64,000 bases of DNA from TPA_inf: Saccharomyces. Its lineage: Eukaryota. The DNA lies in assembly GCA_000146045.2 (NCBI GenBank), contig BK006935.2:128001-192000 (forward strand). Reading direction: 5' to 3'. The position numbers and the translations under genes were made by a program. Positions within the stretch are counted from its first letter, which is position 1. Each line of letters starts with the position of its first letter. The notes under the pieces were generated by a model that was given only the letters and a program-made list of their open reading frames with translations, ran no database searches and was not told the origin of the DNA. This document shows, in pieces, positions 32,228-62,056 of this stretch.

Positions 32228-32574
32228 TAGTTGGTTCTGAGAAATGGGTGAATGTTGAGATAATTGTTGGGATTCCATTGTTGATAAAGGCTATAATATT
32301 AGGTATACAGAATATACTAGAAGTTCTCCTCGAGGATATAGGAATCCTCAAAATGGAATCTATATTTCTACATACTAATATTACGATTATTCCTCATTCC
32401 GTTTTATATGTTTATATTCATTGATCCTATTACATTATCAATCCTTGCGTTTCAGCTTCCACTAATTTAGATGACTATTTCTCATCATTTGCGTCATCTT
32501 CTAACACCGTATATGATAATATACTAGTAATGTAAATACTAGTTAGTAGATGATAGTTGATTTCTATTCCAACA
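32228..32574 (-). repeat. Ty1 3' LTR (delta)
   Basis: Near-identical copy of the 37836..38162 sequence; TG...CA termini. Confidence 0.9.
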
Positions 32575-51820: not shown

Positions 51821-53140
51821 TATATACTTGGCGCGTACAATTTCGTAAAGCAAATAACTCTGGTATGATGCAAACTCATCCTCTGGAAGGACGATATCAG
51901 CTGAGATTAAAGGACTTTCAGGGTTGTCAGGAGATCCTTCCCTCAATGGGATTGCTTTAGGATCGTCCGTGACATGAGTGTTTTTTTTAAATAAGATTGC
52001 ATGTTTAACAAACGATTTAACTTGCTTTTGCTTACAAGTCAAGTAAACCTTATCCTGATAGCTTAGGAAAAATAGACTTGAATGTGTCGAACATTTCAAA
52101 CCTCAATTGGTATTTTCCTTTTTTTCAACTGTACGTACATAGCTTTTCGCTTTCTTTAGCGCCCCCAGATGAAAGTATATATCGTAACAAGGATGGGAAC
52201 ATGAAAGGTACTGAAAAAACATCTGTATTTATTAAAAGTAAATCAAAAGCAGACTGGGAAGTTCTGTCGTAGGGATTTTTTTTTTAATGTTATGTGTGTA
52301 GGATTATTCTATTTCCTTGAATTTCTCGATCGAGATTTTTCGTACCTGTGTATTTTTGGATATAAGAGTGTTTCTGATCTATTGAGTGAGCAGGTCTCCA
52401 GCGGAATATAGAGTAGATTGAATATGGAAGAGGACTACATTAAGGCTTATTGTTAGTTAGTTACTGTTAGGACGCTTCGGCGAGCTGATGTCTGACTTCT
52501 CGTTGTATCAAAGAGCTCCCAATACGCCAGCGCATTTAAACTATGATCACGGAATGCTGGATTAGTAGTATAGCAAAAGTAACACTTGTCCACCGCAGAC
52601 TCCATCACTTAGTCAACACCTTGGGTGTTTTACCGCTGATAATGGCCGTAAAATCGCCAGATATATATCATCATTGTTCTTCGCGAATAATACGTAACAC
52701 AGTCTCTTTTCGAAATTTAGATGAGGACCATAGGCATGACTTATTTACTGAGATGTCCCTGCGTTAAAACTTTTACTGGCCGATTGCTAACTTTATATTT
52801 GTTAATAAAACTATTCACGCCTGTGTCCTAATTGTTGGATAATACCTAAACAATAACGATGTTGTATAGCTAAGAGGACGACCAGACAAAAAGTTATAAA
52901 CTTTACCCTCGTTGAAAATGGGGCAGCCACCTATGAATCACTTCCCATTACAATGCCGAATAGCAAAATATGTAGTAGAACACGTACACGCATGATAATT
53001 ACTTCCATGCTGTACTTATTTTTTGGGTGTCTCTTCAGAAAGAATGCTTTATATAACCATGTGTTTGAATTAGCGATCAGCTAATAACAAGTCAGTGTCC
53101 AAATAGTTAAAACATTGTGACCCAAATATCACAAATAAGT

Positions 53141-53254
53141 GGTTGTTTGGCCGAGCGGTCTAAGGCGCCTGATTCAAGAAATATCTTGACCGCAGTGAAC
53201 TGTGGGAATACTCAGGTATCGTAAGATGCAAGAGTTCGAATCTCTTAGCAACCA
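53141..53254 (+). tRNA. tL(CAA)A: tRNA-Leu (anticodon CAA) with intron (about 53178-53209)
   Basis: GGTTGTTTGGCCGAGCGGTCTAAGGCGCCTGATTCAAG[intron]...GGTATCGTAAGATGCAAGAGTTCGAATCTCTTAGCAACCA. Confidence 0.9.
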
Positions 53255-54521
53255 TTATTTTTTCTTTTTCCTCCTATACTTCATAATCTACGTAGGAATG
53301 AAAGTACCAACATTATACCAATGAGGGTGTGTTTCGTGGATGCATATACTCTGAAGATAAAAACAAACTCAAGTCCGCTTCCTACGGTTTGAGTATTTCT
53401 TACCACTACATAATAAAGAATATTACGTTAACTGTAAAATCAAGTAGACTTGGAAAATACAACGAGAACACTTTCCTGATTCTGCATCAGCGTTTTCTTA
53501 TCACCAGCTGTACTTCTACATTAGCTAACTCTCCTTTCTATAAAGGGCGTCTTTCACTTCACTTGTGCCATGTTACAAAGCTCCAAACGCACTTCTAACT
53601 GAGTACAATGCACGATCCCACTGACAGACAAAACAGCTTCACAGAATTTGATCATGCCATCGTAAAAACCACGTAGTAAGGAATAAAAAATCCCGAAGTC
53701 GATCATACTATGTAGAGATGTACATGAATAGTCTAGGAATCTGGTCTTCCAGCATGTTGCTTTGGTCTGCTTCAAGCGCTATGGAAGCGCTCGCCATGAG
53801 ATATGCTGTTTCAAGGCAAAATAGCAAAGCTCTTTGTAAAGAAATACAATTCAGAGAAGAAGCTACAGCATTTTGTTTCTGGATGATCCCTGCAGGTTCA
53901 TACTACTAAGTAAATCTTGAACAGTTCAAATTTCAACAATTCAGAAACCGCTCTTTTTATATATACTCTACCAAACGAGATGAAACAGCATTTTTTTACT
54001 CTTATAAGGTACCAATATTTTGACGTATGCTTTCTTTAACGTTCACGATCGGGCTGGGCCATTAAACTTACCTTAGATATTATTTGGAACAGCACCGCAA
54101 GTGCTGATGTCCCAGAAATGGGCGCCGGTTCAATTAGGTCGTGAAGTCAGACATATGGAGACTCTCGGACTGAAAGCACTAAGGGATGATAGCTGGCATG
54201 CCAATTCCATTTTAAATTTACACATCAAGTTACAGGGTTTGGGAAAATCACGTTCAAAGCCTGAAAATTTGAGGTTGTTCACGGAAATCATTTGGTTATG
54301 TCTGTCGGCCTGCTATTTAGAGACATTTTTTATTGCAACAACCTACTCTATGCACTTACACGGAATCGCAGAATAACGCGCGCACAACACAATTGGGAAA
54401 CGATAGGATTTTGAATAGTGTATTGCTTTGTACCGATTTAAATAATTCTTTCTCGTGTTGAATCCGAGTTGAAGATGAGTATGCTTTGAAGAGGTGAAAT
54501 ATCATCAGTAAAAAAAAATAA

Positions 54522-54603
54522 CGACAACTGCAGGACTCGAACCTGCGCGGGCAAAGCCCAAAAGATTTCTAATCTTTCGCCTTAACCACTCGGCCAAGTT
54601 GCC
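54522..54603 (-). tRNA. tS(AGA)A: tRNA-Ser (anticodon AGA)
   Basis: Reverse complement reads GGCAACTTGGCCGAGTGGTTAAGGCGAAAGATTAGAAATCTTTTGGGCTTTGCCCGCGCAGGTTCGAGTCCTGCAGTTGTCG. Confidence 0.9.
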
Positions 54604-54619
54604 AAAATTGTATGTTATT

Positions 54620-54959
54620 TGTTGTATCTCAAAATGAGATATGTCAGTATGACAATACGTCACCCTGAACGTTCATAAAACACATATGAAACAACCTTAT
54701 AACAAAACGAACAACATGAGACAAAACCCGACCTTCCCTAGCTGAACTACCCAAAGTATAAATGCCTGAACAATTAGTTTAGATCCGAGATTCCGCGCTT
54801 CCACCACTTAGTATGATTCATATTTTATATAATATATAAGATAAGTAACATTCCGTGAATTAATCTGATAAACTGTTTTGACAACTGGTTACTTCCCTAA
54901 GACTGTTTATATTAGGATTGTCAAGACACTCCGGTATTACTCGAGCCCGTAATACAACA
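54620..54959 (+). repeat. Intact solo sigma element (Ty3 LTR, 340 bp) with TTATT target-site duplication, 16 bp upstream of the tS(AGA)A 5' end
   Basis: TGTTGTATCTCAAAATGAGATATGTCAGTATGACAATACGTCACC...GAGCCCGTAATACAACA; TSD ttatt at 54615-54619 and 54960-54964. Confidence 0.85.
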
Positions 54960-55088
54960 TTATTTTCAGTGATAAAATATGTAAACCAATTATAAGAAAA
55001 AGGATTGCGTTGCATCACAACTGTAAACCATTAATTAAAAAGAGCAATTGCTATTTAGATTTGTTGCTGAGAATTGGCTAAAAAATCT

Positions 55089-55140
55089 GATAATTGTAGG
55101 ACTTCTATTATTGCTAGGGGCAATGTGTTGGAATGCAATT
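55089..55140 (-). repeat. Short inverted delta-end fragment abutting the next delta
   Basis: tgagaattggctaaaaaatctgataattgtaggac resembles reverse-complemented delta 3' end (tgagaaatgggtgaatgttgagataattgttggga). Confidence 0.3.
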
Positions 55141-55142
55141 CT

Positions 55143-55474
55143 GTTGGAATAAAAATCCACTATCGTCTATCAACTAATAGTTATATTATCAATATATTAT
55201 CATATACGGTGTAGAGATGATGGCATAAGGTATGAAAAGCTGTCATCGAAGTTAGAGGAAGCTGAAGTGTAAGGATTGATAATGCAATAGGATAATGAAA
55301 CATATAAAACGGAATGAGGAATAATCGTAAGATTGGTATATAGAAATATAGACTCCATTATGGGGATTCCTAGACCCTCGAGGAGAACCTTCAAGTATAT
55401 TCTGTATACCTAATATTATAGCCTTTATCAACAATGGAATCCCAACAATTATCTCAAAATTCCCCCAATTCTCA
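55143..55474 (+). repeat. Diverged solo delta (Ty1/Ty2 LTR), about 332 bp
   Basis: tgttggaataaaaatccactatcgtctatcaactaatag...tatcatatacggtgtagagatgatggc...cctcgaggagaacc...aattatctcaaaattcccccaattctca. Confidence 0.8.
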
Positions 55475-55769
55475 ACATCCGACTGCCATGCAATGTGCTT
55501 TTCTGGATCTCACTCATGATCATAATGGCCCTGTAAAAGGCTCGCACTATTATTATTATATCTTCACTATATATTATTTCGGAGGCTGTACCTATCAGTG
55601 AAAAAACGCCTCTAAAAATGAAAAAAAAAAAGAATATGAAAGGGGTTCTGAATTGCTAAAATATTTCGTCAAAGCTCAATTAGTATCATGATCAAGTCGT
55701 AATTCGAATCAGCATAACAACCTCCAAAACCATATAATAACCTTACACAAGACAAGATATCAATTCAAC

Positions 55770-56477
55770 ATGCAAACCCCTTCAGAAAATACCGACGTCA
55801 AGTTGGATACTCTCGACGAACCCAGTGCACATTTAATCGAGGAAAATGTGGCTCTTCCAGAGGATACATTCAATTCGTACTGGAGTTATATACTTAATGA
55901 AATCGCTCGTTGTAAACCGCTAATGATTATGTTCCTAATACCTGTGTGTTTGGTTTTATTGATTACGTTTTTTCATGATATCAAAGGTATCCTTGTGTTT
56001 TTAGTGATTTCTCTTATCCTCTCTATTATCATTTTATTGATCGGTATAACTGCCTTCGTGTCTGAGACCTTGAATAAGGGTTTCATAATTAAGCTTTTAG
56101 TAGAAGTCATTACACGTAAACCAGCAGTAGGGGGGAAGGAATGGAGAATAATCGCATATAATATGAACCAGTATCTGTTTGACCATGGGATATGGCATAC
56201 TCCGTATTACTTTTTTTGTGAACATAGGTGCCATAAATTTTTCAAAAGCCTTATCAAACAGACAAGGTCGAATGCACATTTGAGTTCACCAACGAACGGT
56301 GCAGAGAATACGCAGTCAAACACACCAGCAAAAGAGGTTTCAAATGAGATGGTAAAACCTTATATCTTTAGTTCTGATCCAGTTTTAGAAGCTTACCTTA
56401 TTAAAGCTGCGGAAATTCACAAAGAAGCTGAATTTGAGTATTGGAGAAAGCAATACCCAGAGGTTGATTTGCCTTAG
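55770..56477 (+). CDS. UIP3: DUP240-family membrane protein (Ulp1-interacting), 235 aa
   Basis: ORF 55770..56477 (+) [32 protein letters not shown]...; two hydrophobic segments. Confidence 0.9.
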
Positions 56478-56891
56478 GGCCGAATTTTTGGTATTTATCT
56501 AGTATATTCTAATATAAAATGTACGAGCATCATTAACTTCAAGAACATTACGAAGCCCGCAATTAAGTGTCAGTCCATCTGGGTGTAAAAGTTATGTACG
56601 CTCGAAACAAATTTTATGTAGTTTACTTTAGATGCAAATGCTATTATATATTTTGCTTTATGATCCTCGGCTTGATGCTCGCCAACGTGAGATAGCTGGT
56701 CATCACAATAGATCAGCCGGGACGCTTTTCGATCACATCGAATCCCTTCGGGACGTTGCAACAATACGTGAAAAATGCCTCAAAAATAATAAATACAATG
56801 GTGAACAACGTTAAAAAAGCATAAAACAGCTGGCTATTTTGATCAGGATAACATCTATAAGTGCCATATTAAGGCAAGATATCAATTGACC

Positions 56892-57596
56892 ATGCAAACA
56901 CCTTCAGAAAATACCGACGTAAAGATGGATACTCTCGACGAACCCAGTGCACATTTAATCGAAGAGAATGTAGCTCTTCCCGAAGACACATTCAGTTCAC
57001 ATCTGAGTTATGTACTTTATGAAATTGCTCATTGTAAACCGATCATGTTTATGATCATCATAATCGTGAGTTTGATCTCATTGATTGTGCTTTTTCATGA
57101 TAACGACGGGTGCACTGTGATCTTAGTGATGTCCCTTATAGTAGCCTCCATGGCTTTAATGGTGGTTGCAGCATTCACATTCGGGAAAGCGATCACTGAA
57201 CAGGAGTTCATGATAAAGCTTTTAGTGGAGGTGATCGCACGCAAGCCTGCGGGGAAGGAATGGGGTACTGTCGCATATAATATGAACCAATATCTATTCA
57301 TGAAGAGACTATGGTATACCCCGTACTATTTCTATAGCGGCAAGAAGTGCCATGAGTTCTTCACCACTCTTATCAAGGAAGTGAATTCTGGTTCGCACTC
57401 GGATTCCTCATCGAATAGTGCCGAGGATACACAATCACCTGTCTCAGCAGGGAAGACTTCAAATGGTCTAAACAACTTTTATAGTATTAGATCAGACCCT
57501 ATTTTGATGGCATATGTTTTGAAGGCAACACAAATAGAAAAGGAGGCTCAAAGTGAATACTGGAGAAAGCAATATCCTGACGCTGATTTACCTTGA
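56892..57596 (+). CDS. YAR028W: DUP240-family membrane protein, 234 aa
   Basis: ORF 56886..57596; conserved start [18 protein letters not shown] at ATG 56892; about 60% identity to UIP3. Confidence 0.85.
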   Translation: MQTPSENTDVKMDTLDEPSAHLIEENVALPEDTFSSHLSYVLYEIAHCKPIMFMIIIIVSLISLIVLFHDNDGCTVILVMSLIVASMALMVVAAFTFGKAITEQEFMIKLLVEVIARKPAGKEWGTVAYNMNQYLFMKRLWYTPYYFYSGKKCHEFFTTLIKEVNSGSHSDSSSNSAEDTQSPVSAGKTSNGLNNFYSIRSDPILMAYVLKATQIEKEAQSEYWRKQYPDADLP

Positions 57597-57967
57597 AGCG
57601 GAAGCATTTTATTCACCAAGTATACTTACTTTTCTTTAAAACGAGAACAAGAATCGAATTCAAGAACATCTCGAAGCCAGAATTGAGCATCATATATTCG
57701 AGCTGTACAAACATCATGGCCTACAACTATCGTATTTGTAAGTTTTTTTAGAGGTTTTCATATTTGTTTAATAAGGGTTCTGTCAGTTTTTGTCACATTC
57801 TATTGTTGCGCTTCGCATAATGCAGCCAAGAAAATCCAAACAATAGAAAAAGAAAAAAAGGATCTCAAAAAGGGTTTGGTGTTGTAGTTATAAGAATAAC
57901 TAGTGAATAAAAAAGCTGTTGTTTGGTCCGTATTACATTCGTCAAAAATTTAGTACTCAAATCGTGT

Positions 57968-58545
57968 ATGCAATCGCAACCACAAAATAAAAATATTAGA
58001 CTGGATGTGTTGAGTGGAGATGGTGCCAATTTAGTTGAGGGAAATGTGGTCCTTCCCAAAGACATGTTCAATTCGTACTTAAGTTATTCACTTTACGTGT
58101 TACGAGGGGGCTCATTGTAAGCCGATAATGATTATGTTCCTGGCATCTGTAATTTTGATTTCACTGACTAATTTCCGAGTATACCATCTCATGTCCCTTC
58201 TATCCTCTTTTTTCATCTCCGGGACAGACCGACAATAAAGCATCTAATATTAGGCTTTCGTTAGAGGTAAGCACACGCCAGCGTTCGGTGAAAGGGGAAT
58301 GAAACATTATCACGTACAAGATGAATAAATATCTATTTGACCATAAAATATGGAGTACTCCTTACTACTTTTATTGCGAAGAAGATTGCCACCGTCTTTT
58401 TCTAAGTTTTATTGAGGGAAGAACTTTCGAGAAGCCAACAAGCAACGCTGAGGAAAATGTACAGGAGACTGAAGCTGGCGAATCTTTCACATTAAATCCC
58501 GGAGAAGATTTTCAAAATTGCTTTCCAAGACAGCGGATATTGTAG
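57968..58545 (+). pseudogene. YAR029W: Degenerate DUP240 copy with multiple frameshifts and stops; its last intact frame is the 74-aa ORF YAR029W (58321..58545)
   Basis: MQSQPQNKNIRLDVLSGDGANLVEGNVVLPKDMFNSYLSYSLYVL then frame breaks; KPIMIMFLASVILISL, ...KMNKYLFDHKIWSTPYYFYCEEDCHRLFLSFIEGRTFEK in other frames. Confidence 0.75.
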
Positions 58546-58835
58546 AACAATCTCAAGTGAAGTATTGGCAAGATATTGGTGCAATTATTTGAAAGGAAGG
58601 AGAAATATTCTGACAGTACCTTGCTAGCAAAGGGATTTACCAATCCACTGACGCTAAAATGGGGTAGTAAATTAGATAAATTGCATTCTAACGTGACTTT
58701 ATATAGTGGGAAACAGATATGTAGCACACAAAACGGCATGATTATGCTTAATTGATTCCTATTTTTTAACGTAAATACTCTCCCAGAACGATCAGAAAAC
58801 TTAACCCGCAACCATCTTTGCTGTGCTAACAACTT

Positions 58836-59732
58836 ATGTCGCCTCAATACCATTTTTATTTTGTATCATTCCGGAACTTAGTATTGAATGAAAAATGCCT
58901 CCGAAGTAAAAAGCAGGTGATGAAAAGTTTCAATTGGTATAAGACAGATCGCTATTTTGATCCGCATAACATCCTTCAACACCATAGCAGAGCTATAGAG
59001 AAGACAAGATATAAACTGGGCATGCAAACATCTTCAGAAAGTACCGACGCCAAGTCGGATTTTCTCGACGAACCCAGTGCATATTTAATTGAGAAAAATG
59101 TGGCTCTTCCCAAGGACATATTCGGTTCGTACTTAAGTTATTGGATATATGAAGTTACTCGTCATAAAGCGGCAGTAATTTTGCTCGTACTTATTGTGAC
59201 TTCAATTTTATTATTAGTGTTTTTTTATAATACGGAATTTTGCGTTGCCTTTGAGATACTATTGTTTTCCTTTTGCTTTCCAGGAACATGCATGGTTGTA
59301 ATTGCATTTAGTGAACCGATCGGTGATCGGGAATTTAAAGTTAAGCTTCTGATGGAAATTATCACACGTAAACCGGCGGTAAAGGGGAAAGAATGGAGGA
59401 CAATTACATACAAGATGAACCAGTATTTATTTGATCATGGGCTATGGGATACTCCCTACTACTTTTACCGTGATGAAGATTGCCACCGTTATTTTCTAAG
59501 TCTTATTAAGGGAAGAACTTTCAAGAAGCAAAAGGAATCGTCAGCCAGCAATGTTAAAGACGCACAATCAAATGACGAAACCGCTGGCACACCAAACGAA
59601 GCCGCTGAGTCTTCTAGTTTTAGTGCCGGACCGAACTTTATAAAGCTCCTCACCAAGGCAGCCGAAATCGAACAACAATTTCAAAAGGAATATTGGCGAC
59701 AAGAGTATCCTGGTGTCGATGAGTTTTTTTAG
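58836..59732 (+). CDS. PRM9: Pheromone-regulated DUP240-family membrane protein, 298 aa as annotated; family-conserved Met is at 59022
   Basis: ORF 58836..59732; first 62 aa have no counterpart in paralogues, then MQTSSESTDAKSDFLDEPSAYLIEKNVALPKD... Confidence 0.85.
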   Translation: MSPQYHFYFVSFRNLVLNEKCLRSKKQVMKSFNWYKTDRYFDPHNILQHHSRAIEKTRYKLGMQTSSESTDAKSDFLDEPSAYLIEKNVALPKDIFGSYLSYWIYEVTRHKAAVILLVLIVTSILLLVFFYNTEFCVAFEILLFSFCFPGTCMVVIAFSEPIGDREFKVKLLMEIITRKPAVKGKEWRTITYKMNQYLFDHGLWDTPYYFYRDEDCHRYFLSLIKGRTFKKQKESSASNVKDAQSNDETAGTPNEAAESSSFSAGPNFIKLLTKAAEIEQQFQKEYWRQEYPGVDEFF

Positions 59733-60106
59733 ACAGAAGACGGGAGACACTAGCACACAACTTTACCAGGCAAGGTATTTGACGCTAGCATGTGTCCAAT
59801 TCAGTGTCATTTATGATTTTTTGTAGTAGGATATAAATATATACAGCGCTCCAAATAGTGCGGTTGCCCCAAAAACACCACGGAACCTCATCTGTTCTCG
59901 TACTTTGTTGTGACAAAGTAGCTCACTGCCTTATTATCACATTTTCATTATGCAACGCTTCGGAAAATACGATGTTGAAAATGCCTCTAGAGATGAAAAA
60001 CAATCGTAAAAGGGTCCTGCGTAATTGAAACATTTGATCAGTATGCAGTGGCACAGAAACAACCAGGAATACTATAGTCATAGGCAATACAAGGTATATA
60101 TTGGCT

Positions 60107-60811
60107 ATGCAGACCCCTCCAGAAAGTACCGACGTCAAGTTAGATACACTTAACGAACCTAGTGCACATTTAATTGAGAAAAATGTGGCTCTTCCTAAGG
60201 ACATATTCCGTTCGTACTTGAGTTATTGGATCTATGAAATCGCTCGCTATACACCAGTCATGATTTTGTCCCTGGTAATAGGGGTTTTGGTTTTATTAAT
60301 TATATTTTTTAATGACAACGAAGCTTGTGTTTTCAATTCTGCAATATTTGCTTTTACTTCTCTTGTAGGTTTGTTAATAATATTAAGTGATGGTAATCCA
60401 AAGCTAGTCAGTCGTCGAAATTTTAGGACCGAGCTTTTAGTGGATGTCATCACACGTAAACCGGCGGTAGAAGGGAAAGAATGGAGGATCATCACATACA
60501 ACATGAACCAATATTTGTTTAATCATGGGCAATGGCATACTCCGTATTACTTTTACAGCGATGAGGATTGCTACCGTTATTTTCTACGCCTTGTTGAGGG
60601 AGTAACCCCCAAGAAGCAAACAGCCACGTCAATTGGCAATTCTCCGGTCACCGCTAAGCCTGAAGATGCCATCGAGTCAGCTTCTCCTAGTTCCAGACTG
60701 AATTATCAAAACTTTTTGCTCAAGGCAGCGGAGATCGAACGACAAGCTCAGGAAAATTACTGGCGAAGGCGGCATCCCAATATCGATGCGCTTCTTAAAA
60801 AGACGGAATAG
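60107..60811 (+). CDS. MST28: DUP240-family membrane protein involved in COPI/COPII vesicle formation, 234 aa
   Basis: ORF 60101..60811; conserved start [18 protein letters not shown] at ATG 60107. Confidence 0.9.
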   Translation: MQTPPESTDVKLDTLNEPSAHLIEKNVALPKDIFRSYLSYWIYEIARYTPVMILSLVIGVLVLLIIFFNDNEACVFNSAIFAFTSLVGLLIILSDGNPKLVSRRNFRTELLVDVITRKPAVEGKEWRIITYNMNQYLFNHGQWHTPYYFYSDEDCYRYFLRLVEGVTPKKQTATSIGNSPVTAKPEDAIESASPSSRLNYQNFLLKAAEIERQAQENYWRRRHPNIDALLKKTE

Positions 60812-61205
60812 CTTAGAGACACTACCATACGTAAAGCGAACATAAACTAGAGTATGATATATAATCAGCACTAACTGGCCGGAAAACGGCCGAAGGAAGC
60901 CTCGAAAAGTCGATTCGTGTTGGACCCATTTGCTGAACAAAGTGGTTCATTGCCTACCTATTATGGTAGTAGTCGTGATAATCGTGTGGTTGGTTTTGTC
61001 AACGGTGCATTTGCATTTTCATGACAATAAACCTTGCGTTTTCGTTCTCGGGATATTACTTTCCCTCCACTTCTTTCGCCTCAATAGCTCCTATAAGCAT
61101 TCTCAGGGCGTATGTCGGTGATCGAGATTTCCAAGCAAGCTTTTAGTGGAAATCATCGCGCGCAAGCCAGCGGTAAAGGGAAAAGAACGGAGGACGATTA
61201 CATAC

Positions 61206-61425
61206 AAGATGAACGAATAAATAAATTAATAATAAATAATAATAAAAAGTACAGTAGCATTAAATATTATTAAGTTTAATGATTAAAAATTGGTTAATTG
61301 TCAAGAAAATCTAAGGTATTAATAAATAAATAATACTATGACAACTTGCAGCGAAAGCATCAGCCCCAATGAAAATTAATCAGAATTGAATCTGAGCGTA
61401 TTTATTTGATAACGGTTTACGTAAC
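61206..61425. repeat. Extremely AT-rich (about 80% A+T) filler of unknown origin between DUP240 pseudogene halves; candidate captured mitochondrial DNA
   Basis: aataaataaattaataataaataataataaaaagtacagtagcattaaatattattaagtttaatgattaaaaattgg... is unlike the flanking nuclear sequence and abuts a delta. Confidence 0.3.
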
Positions 61426-61757
61426 TGTTGGAATAAAAATCAACTATCATCTACTAACTAGTGTTTACGTTACTAGTATATTATCATATACGGTGTTAGA
61501 AGATGACGCAAATGATGAGAAATAGTCATCGTTTTCAACGGAAGCTGAAATACAAGGATTGATAATGTAATAGGATCAATGAATATCAACATATAAAACG
61601 ATGATAATAATATTTATAGAATTGTGTAGAATTGCAGATTCCCTTTTATGGATTCCTAAATCCTCGAGAAGAACTTCTAGTATATCTACGTACCTAATAT
61701 TATTGCCTTATTAAAAATGGAATCCCAACAATTATCTCAAAATTCCCCCAATTCTCA
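61426..61757 (+). repeat. Solo delta (Ty2-type LTR), about 332 bp, inserted inside the DUP240 pseudogene
   Basis: tgttggaataaaaatcaactatcatctactaactagtgtttacgttactagtatattatcatatacggtgttagaagatgacgcaaatgatgag...aattatctcaaaattcccccaattctca. Confidence 0.85.
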
Positions 61758-62056
61758 TCAGTAACACCCCACCCCGTATTACTTTTACCGTGATGAAGAT
61801 TGGCATCGTTACTTTCTAAACGTAGGACGTGCGGAATGACAAAACCATCAGCAGTGTCACGATCTCTCCAGTCACAATGGCAATCATGAGTGCATAGTCC
61901 AAAGTAAAGGGGCAAGGAAAAGCATGATTGAAAGGACTCCCCATCTGGACTCTATATGTCATCAGCGGCTAAAAAAAAGCATATAGCACAACATCAGCAT
62001 CAGCATCAGCACTAGAGTCATCGGCCCGGCGGTCCGCGGTCATCCCCGCGGACTTT

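Follow-up and report, generated by a model that had tools for sequence, protein, structure and literature searches.

A two-fragment mitochondrial insertion and a solo delta LTR in a DUP240-family pseudogene on Saccharomyces cerevisiae chromosome I

The nuclear genome of S288C holds 34 NUMTs at 28 loci, ranging from 22 to 236 bp, and some of these loci carry several inserts (Chatre & Ricchetti 2011, PMC3050842). Capture by end joining has been recorded experimentally: over one-tenth of the insertions at a single break were built from two to four mitochondrial fragments (Yu et al. 2024, PMC11372161). In Debaryomyces hansenii, NUMTs are found within pseudogenes, where a relic of a multigene family bears the NUMT as its inactivating lesion (Lafontaine & Dujon 2010, PMC2876123, citing Sacerdot et al. 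2008).

Here we analyse a site at which a NUMT and a solo delta LTR lie side by side. The window, by which we mean the whole 64,000-nucleotide stretch of DNA analysed, contains tandem DUP-family ORFs at 55.7-60.8 kb and a carnitine acetyltransferase ORF from 62193 onward, and both insertions sit between an MST28-like ORF (60107-60811) and the latter gene, YAT1. The protein of the last intact array member leads to ten S. cerevisiae chromosome I assemblies with identical gene order; this identifies the region as the S. cerevisiae DUP240 array on chromosome I, upstream of YAT1.

Comparison with the described systems reveals few surprises. Like the resident NUMTs of S288C (PMC3050842), the insert is short, AT-rich, located in non-coding nuclear DNA and within the reported size range; it also shares with them the presence of more than one fragment at the locus, an adjoining Ty LTR and junctions with little or no homology. 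Nothing essential differs, although the allele in the window has undergone a secondary 69-bp internal deletion, and while that study stresses richness in ACS, the NUMT described here contains no match to the ARS consensus at one mismatch or fewer. The likeness extends to NUMTs formed at induced breaks (PMC11372161): two non-adjacent mitochondrial fragments are joined, to one another and to the chromosome, through 0-5 shared bases, and their sizes here, ~140 and ~116 bp, fall inside the 22-492 bp seen in that work. Those NUMTs are experimental products, whereas the one in the window is an evolutionary, nearly fixed insertion. As in D. hansenii (PMC2876123), the host is a multigene-family relic, but the gene in the window was dead before the NUMT arrived, given a frameshift shared with S. 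paradoxus.

The delta likewise resembles its class, being a complete 332-bp TG...CA LTR with host DNA to either side and a putative target duplication of 5 bp. It departs from the usual solo delta in the three bases, TCA, that precede the right target copy and in its distance of 6.8 kb from the nearest tRNA gene in the window, which places it outside the usual Ty1/Ty2 zone. In sum, the site is a known kind of feature, a standard yeast NUMT beside a standard solo LTR, and a clean example of it. We read it as two independent, neutral insertions, 28 bp apart, in an already dead DUP240-family copy, and put the probability of this reading at roughly 0.9.

Extent of the two insertions in the host pseudogene

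The sequence-only reading had proposed a DUP240 pseudogene split by a delta and, directly before it, some 220 bp of AT-rich filler, the two having replaced about 27 bp of the host frame. Alignment to paralogues and orthologues upholds the pseudogene, the delta and the AT-rich composition but moves the boundaries, which are as follows.

60885-61216, + strand: DUP240-family pseudogene, left of the NUMT; ends ...ATGAACGA and aligns to the PRM9-like and MST28-like paralogues
61217-61355, + strand (COB sense): NUMT fragment B, from the COB group I intron bI5, about intron nt 186-354
61351-61355, no strand: microhomology at the junction of fragments B and A; GCGAA, 5 bp present in both fragment ends
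61356-61397, - strand (COX1 sense): NUMT fragment A, from the last exon of mitochondrial COX1, ancestrally about CDS nt 1228-1343
61398-61425, + strand: host pseudogene spacer between NUMT and delta; 28 bp, the first 13 bases being those of the PRM9-like paralogue
61421-61425, + strand: left target-site copy, GTAAC; S. paradoxus has a single GTCAC here
61426-61757, + strand: solo delta LTR of the Ty1/Ty2 class; 332 bp, complete TG...CA (TGTTGG...TCTCA)
61758-61760, + strand: extra TCA, a repeat of the three bases that close the LTR; every strain examined has it
61761-61765, + strand: right target-site copy, GTAAC, placed by comparison of strains and of paralogues and orthologues
61766-61830, + strand: pseudogene right of the delta, beginning PYYFYRDEDWHRYFL...; 88% identical to the PRM9-like paralogue

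The closest paralogue of the pseudogene in the window is the PRM9-like ORF at 58836-59732, to which it is 83-88% identical in conserved blocks; the left relic reads ...KLLVEIIARKPAVKGKERRTITYKMNE. Its orthologue in S. mikatae is a 200-aa DUP ORF with PF00674. Homology and disabling mutations together make the host a DUP240 (Pfam PF00674) pseudogene. A start codon is missing from the S. cerevisiae copy, and a 1-bp frameshift deletion (TTTCC-AAGC; window 61110-61140, L029:7250-7290) is present in S. cerevisiae and S. paradoxus, but not in S. mikatae. Since this frameshift is common to S. paradoxus, the death of the gene predates the split of that species from S. cerevisiae, and thus both insertions. 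Both insertions are most simply regarded as neutral. The DUP240 literature that we searched makes no mention of this pseudogene.

Paralogue homology ends at ...ATGAACGA (61216) and restarts at 61398 with GTATTTATTTGAT, the very next bases of the paralogue. It then reaches 61425 and picks up again beyond the delta. When 61217-61397, the delta, the TCA and one GTAAC are removed, what remains can be aligned to both the PRM9-like and the MST28-like paralogue, interrupted only by one gap of 5 bases. This gap corresponds to a tandem ACCCC duplication (61766-61775), which is polymorphic and is reduced to a single ACCCC in strain L009; with the duplication also taken out, the alignment is gapless to the intact paralogues and to the orthologous sequences of S. 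paradoxus and S. mikatae. The gapless reconstructed site therefore fixes the filler at 61217-61397, that is, 181 bp made up of two mitochondrial fragments rather than ~220 bp, and separates it from the delta. In fact, the intervening 28 bp are host sequence, identical to the S. paradoxus orthologous sequence at 25 of 28 positions. No host bases were lost or duplicated at the NUMT, as judged from both the paralogue and the orthologue alignments: what had been taken for a replaced segment is present, 28 bp of it at 61398-61425 and the rest after the delta. The filler does have the low G+C content that first drew attention to it, 13.5% over 61220-61330 and 22.5% over 61220-61397.

The NUMT is embedded in the nuclear chromosome and is not an assembly artefact; ten independent assemblies, chromosome-level or otherwise large, and a single metagenome contig show it with identical junctions. 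The orthologous regions of S. paradoxus (L029) and S. mikatae (L030), reached via the YAT1 orthologues, carry an uninterrupted relic, collinear with the reconstructed site, from which both NUMT and delta are absent. Both insertions thus postdate the split from S. paradoxus. The sequence-only reading had asked whether other strains retain the uninterrupted pseudogene: the sister species do, but among the S. cerevisiae assemblies compared we found no exact empty site. Instead, NUMT and delta occupy the same positions in 10/10 strain assemblies with the same MST28 allele, with fillers 98.9-100% identical, and the NUMT is also present in L021, a metagenome contig of S. cerevisiae chromosome I that is 97-99% identical to window 53124-61364.

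We note several further differences among strains. About 50 bp of the pseudogene (...LVEGRTFKKQ...) have gone from the window and from most strains (61820-61830, compared with L009:7712-7760), whereas L009 and the sister species retain them. Two assemblies labelled S. cerevisiae (L034:2161-2505, L035:2156-2500) lack both NUMT and delta, but they bear a 31-bp deletion over the NUMT site on a divergent haplotype. Their YAT1 is 99% identical to that of the window, while in these two and in two read-assembly contigs (L032, L033), which carry the same haplotype and likewise neither insertion, the DUP region is only 84-90% identical, about as distant as S. paradoxus. This haplotype looks like an introgressed or anciently diverged end of the DUP240 array. 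One further assembly (L007:7287-8250; GCA_000976095.2) has two delta copies at the site. The DNA between them comprises what resembles the start of an LTR in inverted orientation, a stretch similar to window 54623-54960 and a run of Ns marking an assembly gap; either the Ty-related structure is more complex in this strain or the scaffolding is at fault.

Two mitochondrial fragments and their joining

Mitochondrial contigs matching fragment B (L024 and L026) were found by scanning metagenome contigs with a 20-mer from the AT-rich part of the filler. Setting a GC cluster aside, window 61216-61355 matches L024 (4375-4207) and L026 at 136/140 bases (97%). The cluster, 30 bp long (CCGCTTTGTGGGAACTCCCATAAGGAGTTT) with AGTTT on each side, lies in the mitochondrial copy at L024:4285-4314 and in L026, at a point that falls between 61277 and 61278 of the window, and is the sole other difference from fragment B. 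Judged by its sequence, L024 is S. cerevisiae mitochondrial DNA. L024 and L026 have 17% G+C; L024 is 100% identical to the mitochondrial contigs L014/L015 over 1480 bp and encodes tRNA-Glu and a group II intron domain. A tblastn search with a COB protein query returned exon 1 at 100% and the later exons at 87-100% on L024. The match is enclosed by COB exons B5 (4608-4561) and B6 (3821-3471), and fragment B therefore belongs to the 739-nt last intron, bI5.

This origin accounts for the weak Rfam group I intron match of the window (17.6 bits, compared with 22.4 bits for L024 over bI5). The segment is no functional group I intron: the score of 17.6 bits stands against an RF00028 gathering threshold of 50, and about 140 of the 739 intron bases are present. 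The exact donor haplotype of fragment B was not recovered, the mitochondrial copies in L024 and L026 carrying the 30-bp GC cluster.

Fragment A is shorter and carries a coding signature. S. cerevisiae mitochondrial DNA was obtained via Cox1 fragments in the protein collection, the proteins and contigs used being database entries; one of the mitochondrial contigs used is part of an 84.8-kb scaffold. Read on the minus strand in the yeast mitochondrial code, 61362-61397 yields AQIQFWLIFIGA, in which the Trp codon is TGA. This peptide is identical to residues 410-421 of yeast Cox1 (PDB 6giq_a), with an E-value of 0.048 that is weak because the peptide is short. At the DNA level, 36/37 bases (97%) correspond to L014 10157-10192 in the last COX1 exon, and an exact 13-mer, CTGATGCTTTCGC, corresponds to L014 10260-10272, which is 69 bp further along COX1.

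The two COX1 blocks are separated in the window allele by a 69-bp internal deletion, located at an AGC repeat (61362-61364, with the joint before 61365). In L021 the DNA between the blocks is still present up to the contig end, with one mismatch to COX1, and the ancestral insert therefore included ~116 bp of contiguous COX1 exon. That contig (L021:1-231) combines a NUMT without the 69-bp deletion with an extra 10-bp repeat (TAAATAATAA); it stops inside the COX1 fragment, short of the delta position.

We considered whether the AT-rich block might be nuclear, for instance spacer of the DUP240 array, with a mitochondrial likeness of composition only. AT-rich words of 12-20 bases match many mitochondrial spacers by chance, and a BLAST search of the filler against the 20-kb COX1-ATP6 region returned only the COX1 block and low-complexity words of 12-20 bases. 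As collinear sequence, the AT-rich part also aligned no better than chance to the COX1 3' region, and we rejected the AT-rich 131 bp as a diverged, collinear COX1 3' end, its score of 20 being equal to the mean of other mitochondrial windows and of shuffles. Against a nuclear origin stand the identity of 97% over 140 bp to a COB intron of verified S. cerevisiae origin, the 36/37 COX1 match that includes a TGA Trp codon, and the absence of the block from the orthologous sites of S. paradoxus and S. mikatae. No nuclear copy of the block emerged when the whole window was searched for repeats, and no similarity to nuclear sequence flanking DUP240 genes, which would have told against a NUMT, exists anywhere in the window. 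We give a nuclear origin almost no credence. The suspicion that the filler is mitochondrial, for which 85% identity or more over at least 50 bp had been set as the mark, is thus borne out by 139-140 bp at 97% (COB bI5) and 37 bp at 97% with the exact 13-mer (COX1). At 140 bp and 97%, such a match is unlikely to have escaped the published S288C NUMT lists. Searching the whole window against ~40 kb of the roughly 85-kb mitochondrial genome revealed no matching locus besides the NUMT site.

The junctions suggest how the mitochondrial pieces were put together. Fragment B lies in COB sense on the + strand, while fragment A is antisense to COX1; since COB and COX1 are on the same mitochondrial strand, several kb apart, these are two separate fragments. 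The mitochondrial copy of B continues as ...TTGCAGCGAA/GTTTAT and the antisense mitochondrial COX1 as CCT/GCGAAAGCATCAG, so that GCGAA is held in common at the joint. The chromosome junctions have 0-1 shared base and no target duplication. This pattern points to end-joining capture of mitochondrial fragments, in which NHEJ proteins presumably took part.

On the basis of what is established for yeast NUMTs, a double-strand break between ...ATGAACGA and GTATTTATTT... would have been repaired by end joining with capture of two unrelated mitochondrial DNA fragments: (I) ~140 bp of COB bI5 and (II) ~116 bp of the last COX1 exon, in opposite relative orientation. The fragments would have been joined to each other over GCGAA and to the chromosome with 0-1 shared base, the host sequence being kept. 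The lineage of the window strain would later have lost 69 bp inside the COX1 fragment, between two AGC repeats, leaving 181 bp.

Another route to the same sequence would be reverse transcription, with bI5 intron RNA and a COX1 transcript copied by Ty reverse transcriptase. Fragment B is an intron, which exists as a discrete RNA, the bI5 segment recurs in a second nuclear-looking contig (L017), and a Ty element was once present 28 bp away. Yet the ends of fragment B are internal to the intron rather than at the intron ends, no poly(A) tract or other mark of a retrocopy is found, and RNA is not required by any observation; end-joining capture of DNA fragments, in turn, is a demonstrated route in yeast (PMC11372161). 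We consider the cDNA route very improbable and retain direct capture of mitochondrial DNA.

The delta LTR and its relation to the NUMT

The delta was identified as complete by the sequence-only reading, and its limits stand: it runs from 61426 to 61757 with the sequence TGTTGGAATAAAAATC...AATTCTCA, and its overall identity to the Ty1 LTRs of the window (32238-32574 and 37826-38163) is 87%. Its first 37 bases have no mismatch to the LTR-start search pattern and are one base off the starts of both Ty1 LTRs in the window. Position 11 of the pattern is G in those Ty1 LTRs and A in the delta, the A being what we take to be Ty2-like. Both flanks are pseudogene, and no Ty internal sequence is present. 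Upstream of the DUP array there is another solo delta (55141-55474), near a tRNA-Ser gene (54521-54604); it is 79% identical to the delta at 61426-61757 and has the same ...AATTCTCA end, followed by ACA.

GTAAC abuts the delta directly on the left, and on the right it is found three bases (TCA) away in all strains examined. Dropping one GTAAC together with the TCA restores exact collinearity with paralogues and orthologues. The intervening TCA counts against a 5-bp target duplication, which this collinearity nevertheless makes probable; the TCA itself would represent a small tandem duplication of the LTR end. Drawing on established knowledge of Ty elements, we suggest that a Ty1/Ty2-class element was inserted by integrase 28 bp downstream of the NUMT, with duplication of GTAAC, and that LTR-LTR recombination later reduced it to a solo LTR.

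The sequence-only reading had instead favoured a single break-repair event, in which mitochondrial fragments and Ty cDNA (the LTR) served together as filler and ~27 bp of host sequence were replaced. The two insertions are indeed just 28 bp apart, and mixed captures of mitochondrial and Ty sequences at one break do occur experimentally (PMC11372161). However, the 28 bp between them are pseudogene sequence orthologous to S. paradoxus, the host bases are all present, and the LTR is complete, TG...CA, and accompanied by GTAAC, whereas captured cDNA is not expected to have exact ends or target duplications. We therefore regard joint capture as most improbable. The complete LTR, the GTAAC duplication and the 28 bp of orthologous host DNA support the delta as an event separate from the NUMT, which normal Ty integration fits and an end-joined cDNA fragment does not.

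Separate events may nonetheless be linked. The Ty element or its LTR could have made the region prone to breakage, with the NUMT filling one such break, or the AT-rich NUMT could have favoured Ty integration, for example as a nucleosome-poor target. Yeast NUMTs are reportedly associated with LTRs. tRNA genes are the usual target of Ty1/Ty2, and the nearest one in the window is 6.8 kb from the delta. By our own rough estimate, two unrelated insertions would fall 28 bp apart within roughly 1.4 kb of dispensable DNA with a chance of ~4%, and they are thus closer than expected. On the other side, no sequence feature connects the NUMT junctions to the Ty insertion point, and the mere scarcity of dispensable stretches in a compact genome favours co-occurrence. 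Every strain with a readable site carries both insertions, L021 ending before the delta, and either of the two may have come first. An indirect connection, such as a fragile site or an AT-rich, nucleosome-poor target, is unlikely but keeps some weight beside our preferred reading of two independent insertions.

An intron copy without the GC cluster, and significance

Fragment B differs from its mitochondrial counterparts by the GC cluster, and it is not the only such copy. A 1110-bp metagenome contig with 34.5% G+C (L017:703-794; OFEI01001228.1) contains ~97 bp of bI5 identical to the NUMT in the window. This stretch also has no GC cluster; its boundaries differ, and its flanks are different and nuclear-looking, with no convincing gene among the ORFs of the contig. 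L017 may represent another NUMT that arose independently from this part of the intron.

The donor haplotype of the NUMT either had no GC cluster or was older than the insertion of the cluster. A tentative reading, with the odds clearly against it, is that the nuclear copy is a dated fossil of a bI5 allele without the 30-bp GC cluster. If this were true, the cluster would have entered bI5 after the S. cerevisiae-S. paradoxus split, and a single ancestral mitochondrial haplotype would have supplied the bI5 segment to the nucleus on two or more occasions, either in one burst or because this segment makes a preferred donor.

The additions made here to what is known are small: (I) a two-fragment anatomy with exact boundaries, (II) a polymorphic 69-bp deletion, (III) empty sites in two sister species, (IV) a nuclear intron copy without the GC cluster, and (V) a second nuclear-looking bI5 contig, L017. 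They matter little beyond good annotation. The 69-bp deletion, the 10-bp repeat and the ACCCC duplication vary among strains and provide polymorphic markers, and some caution is due in that reads from the NUMT site could be mistaken for COX1 or COB intron sequence.

As a case, the locus, for which two sister species preserve exact empty sites, records a chromosome break apparently mended by two mitochondrial fragments, and it illustrates that a Ty LTR near a NUMT need not belong to the same event. The intron copy without the GC cluster may also help to date GC-cluster mobility in yeast mitochondrial DNA.
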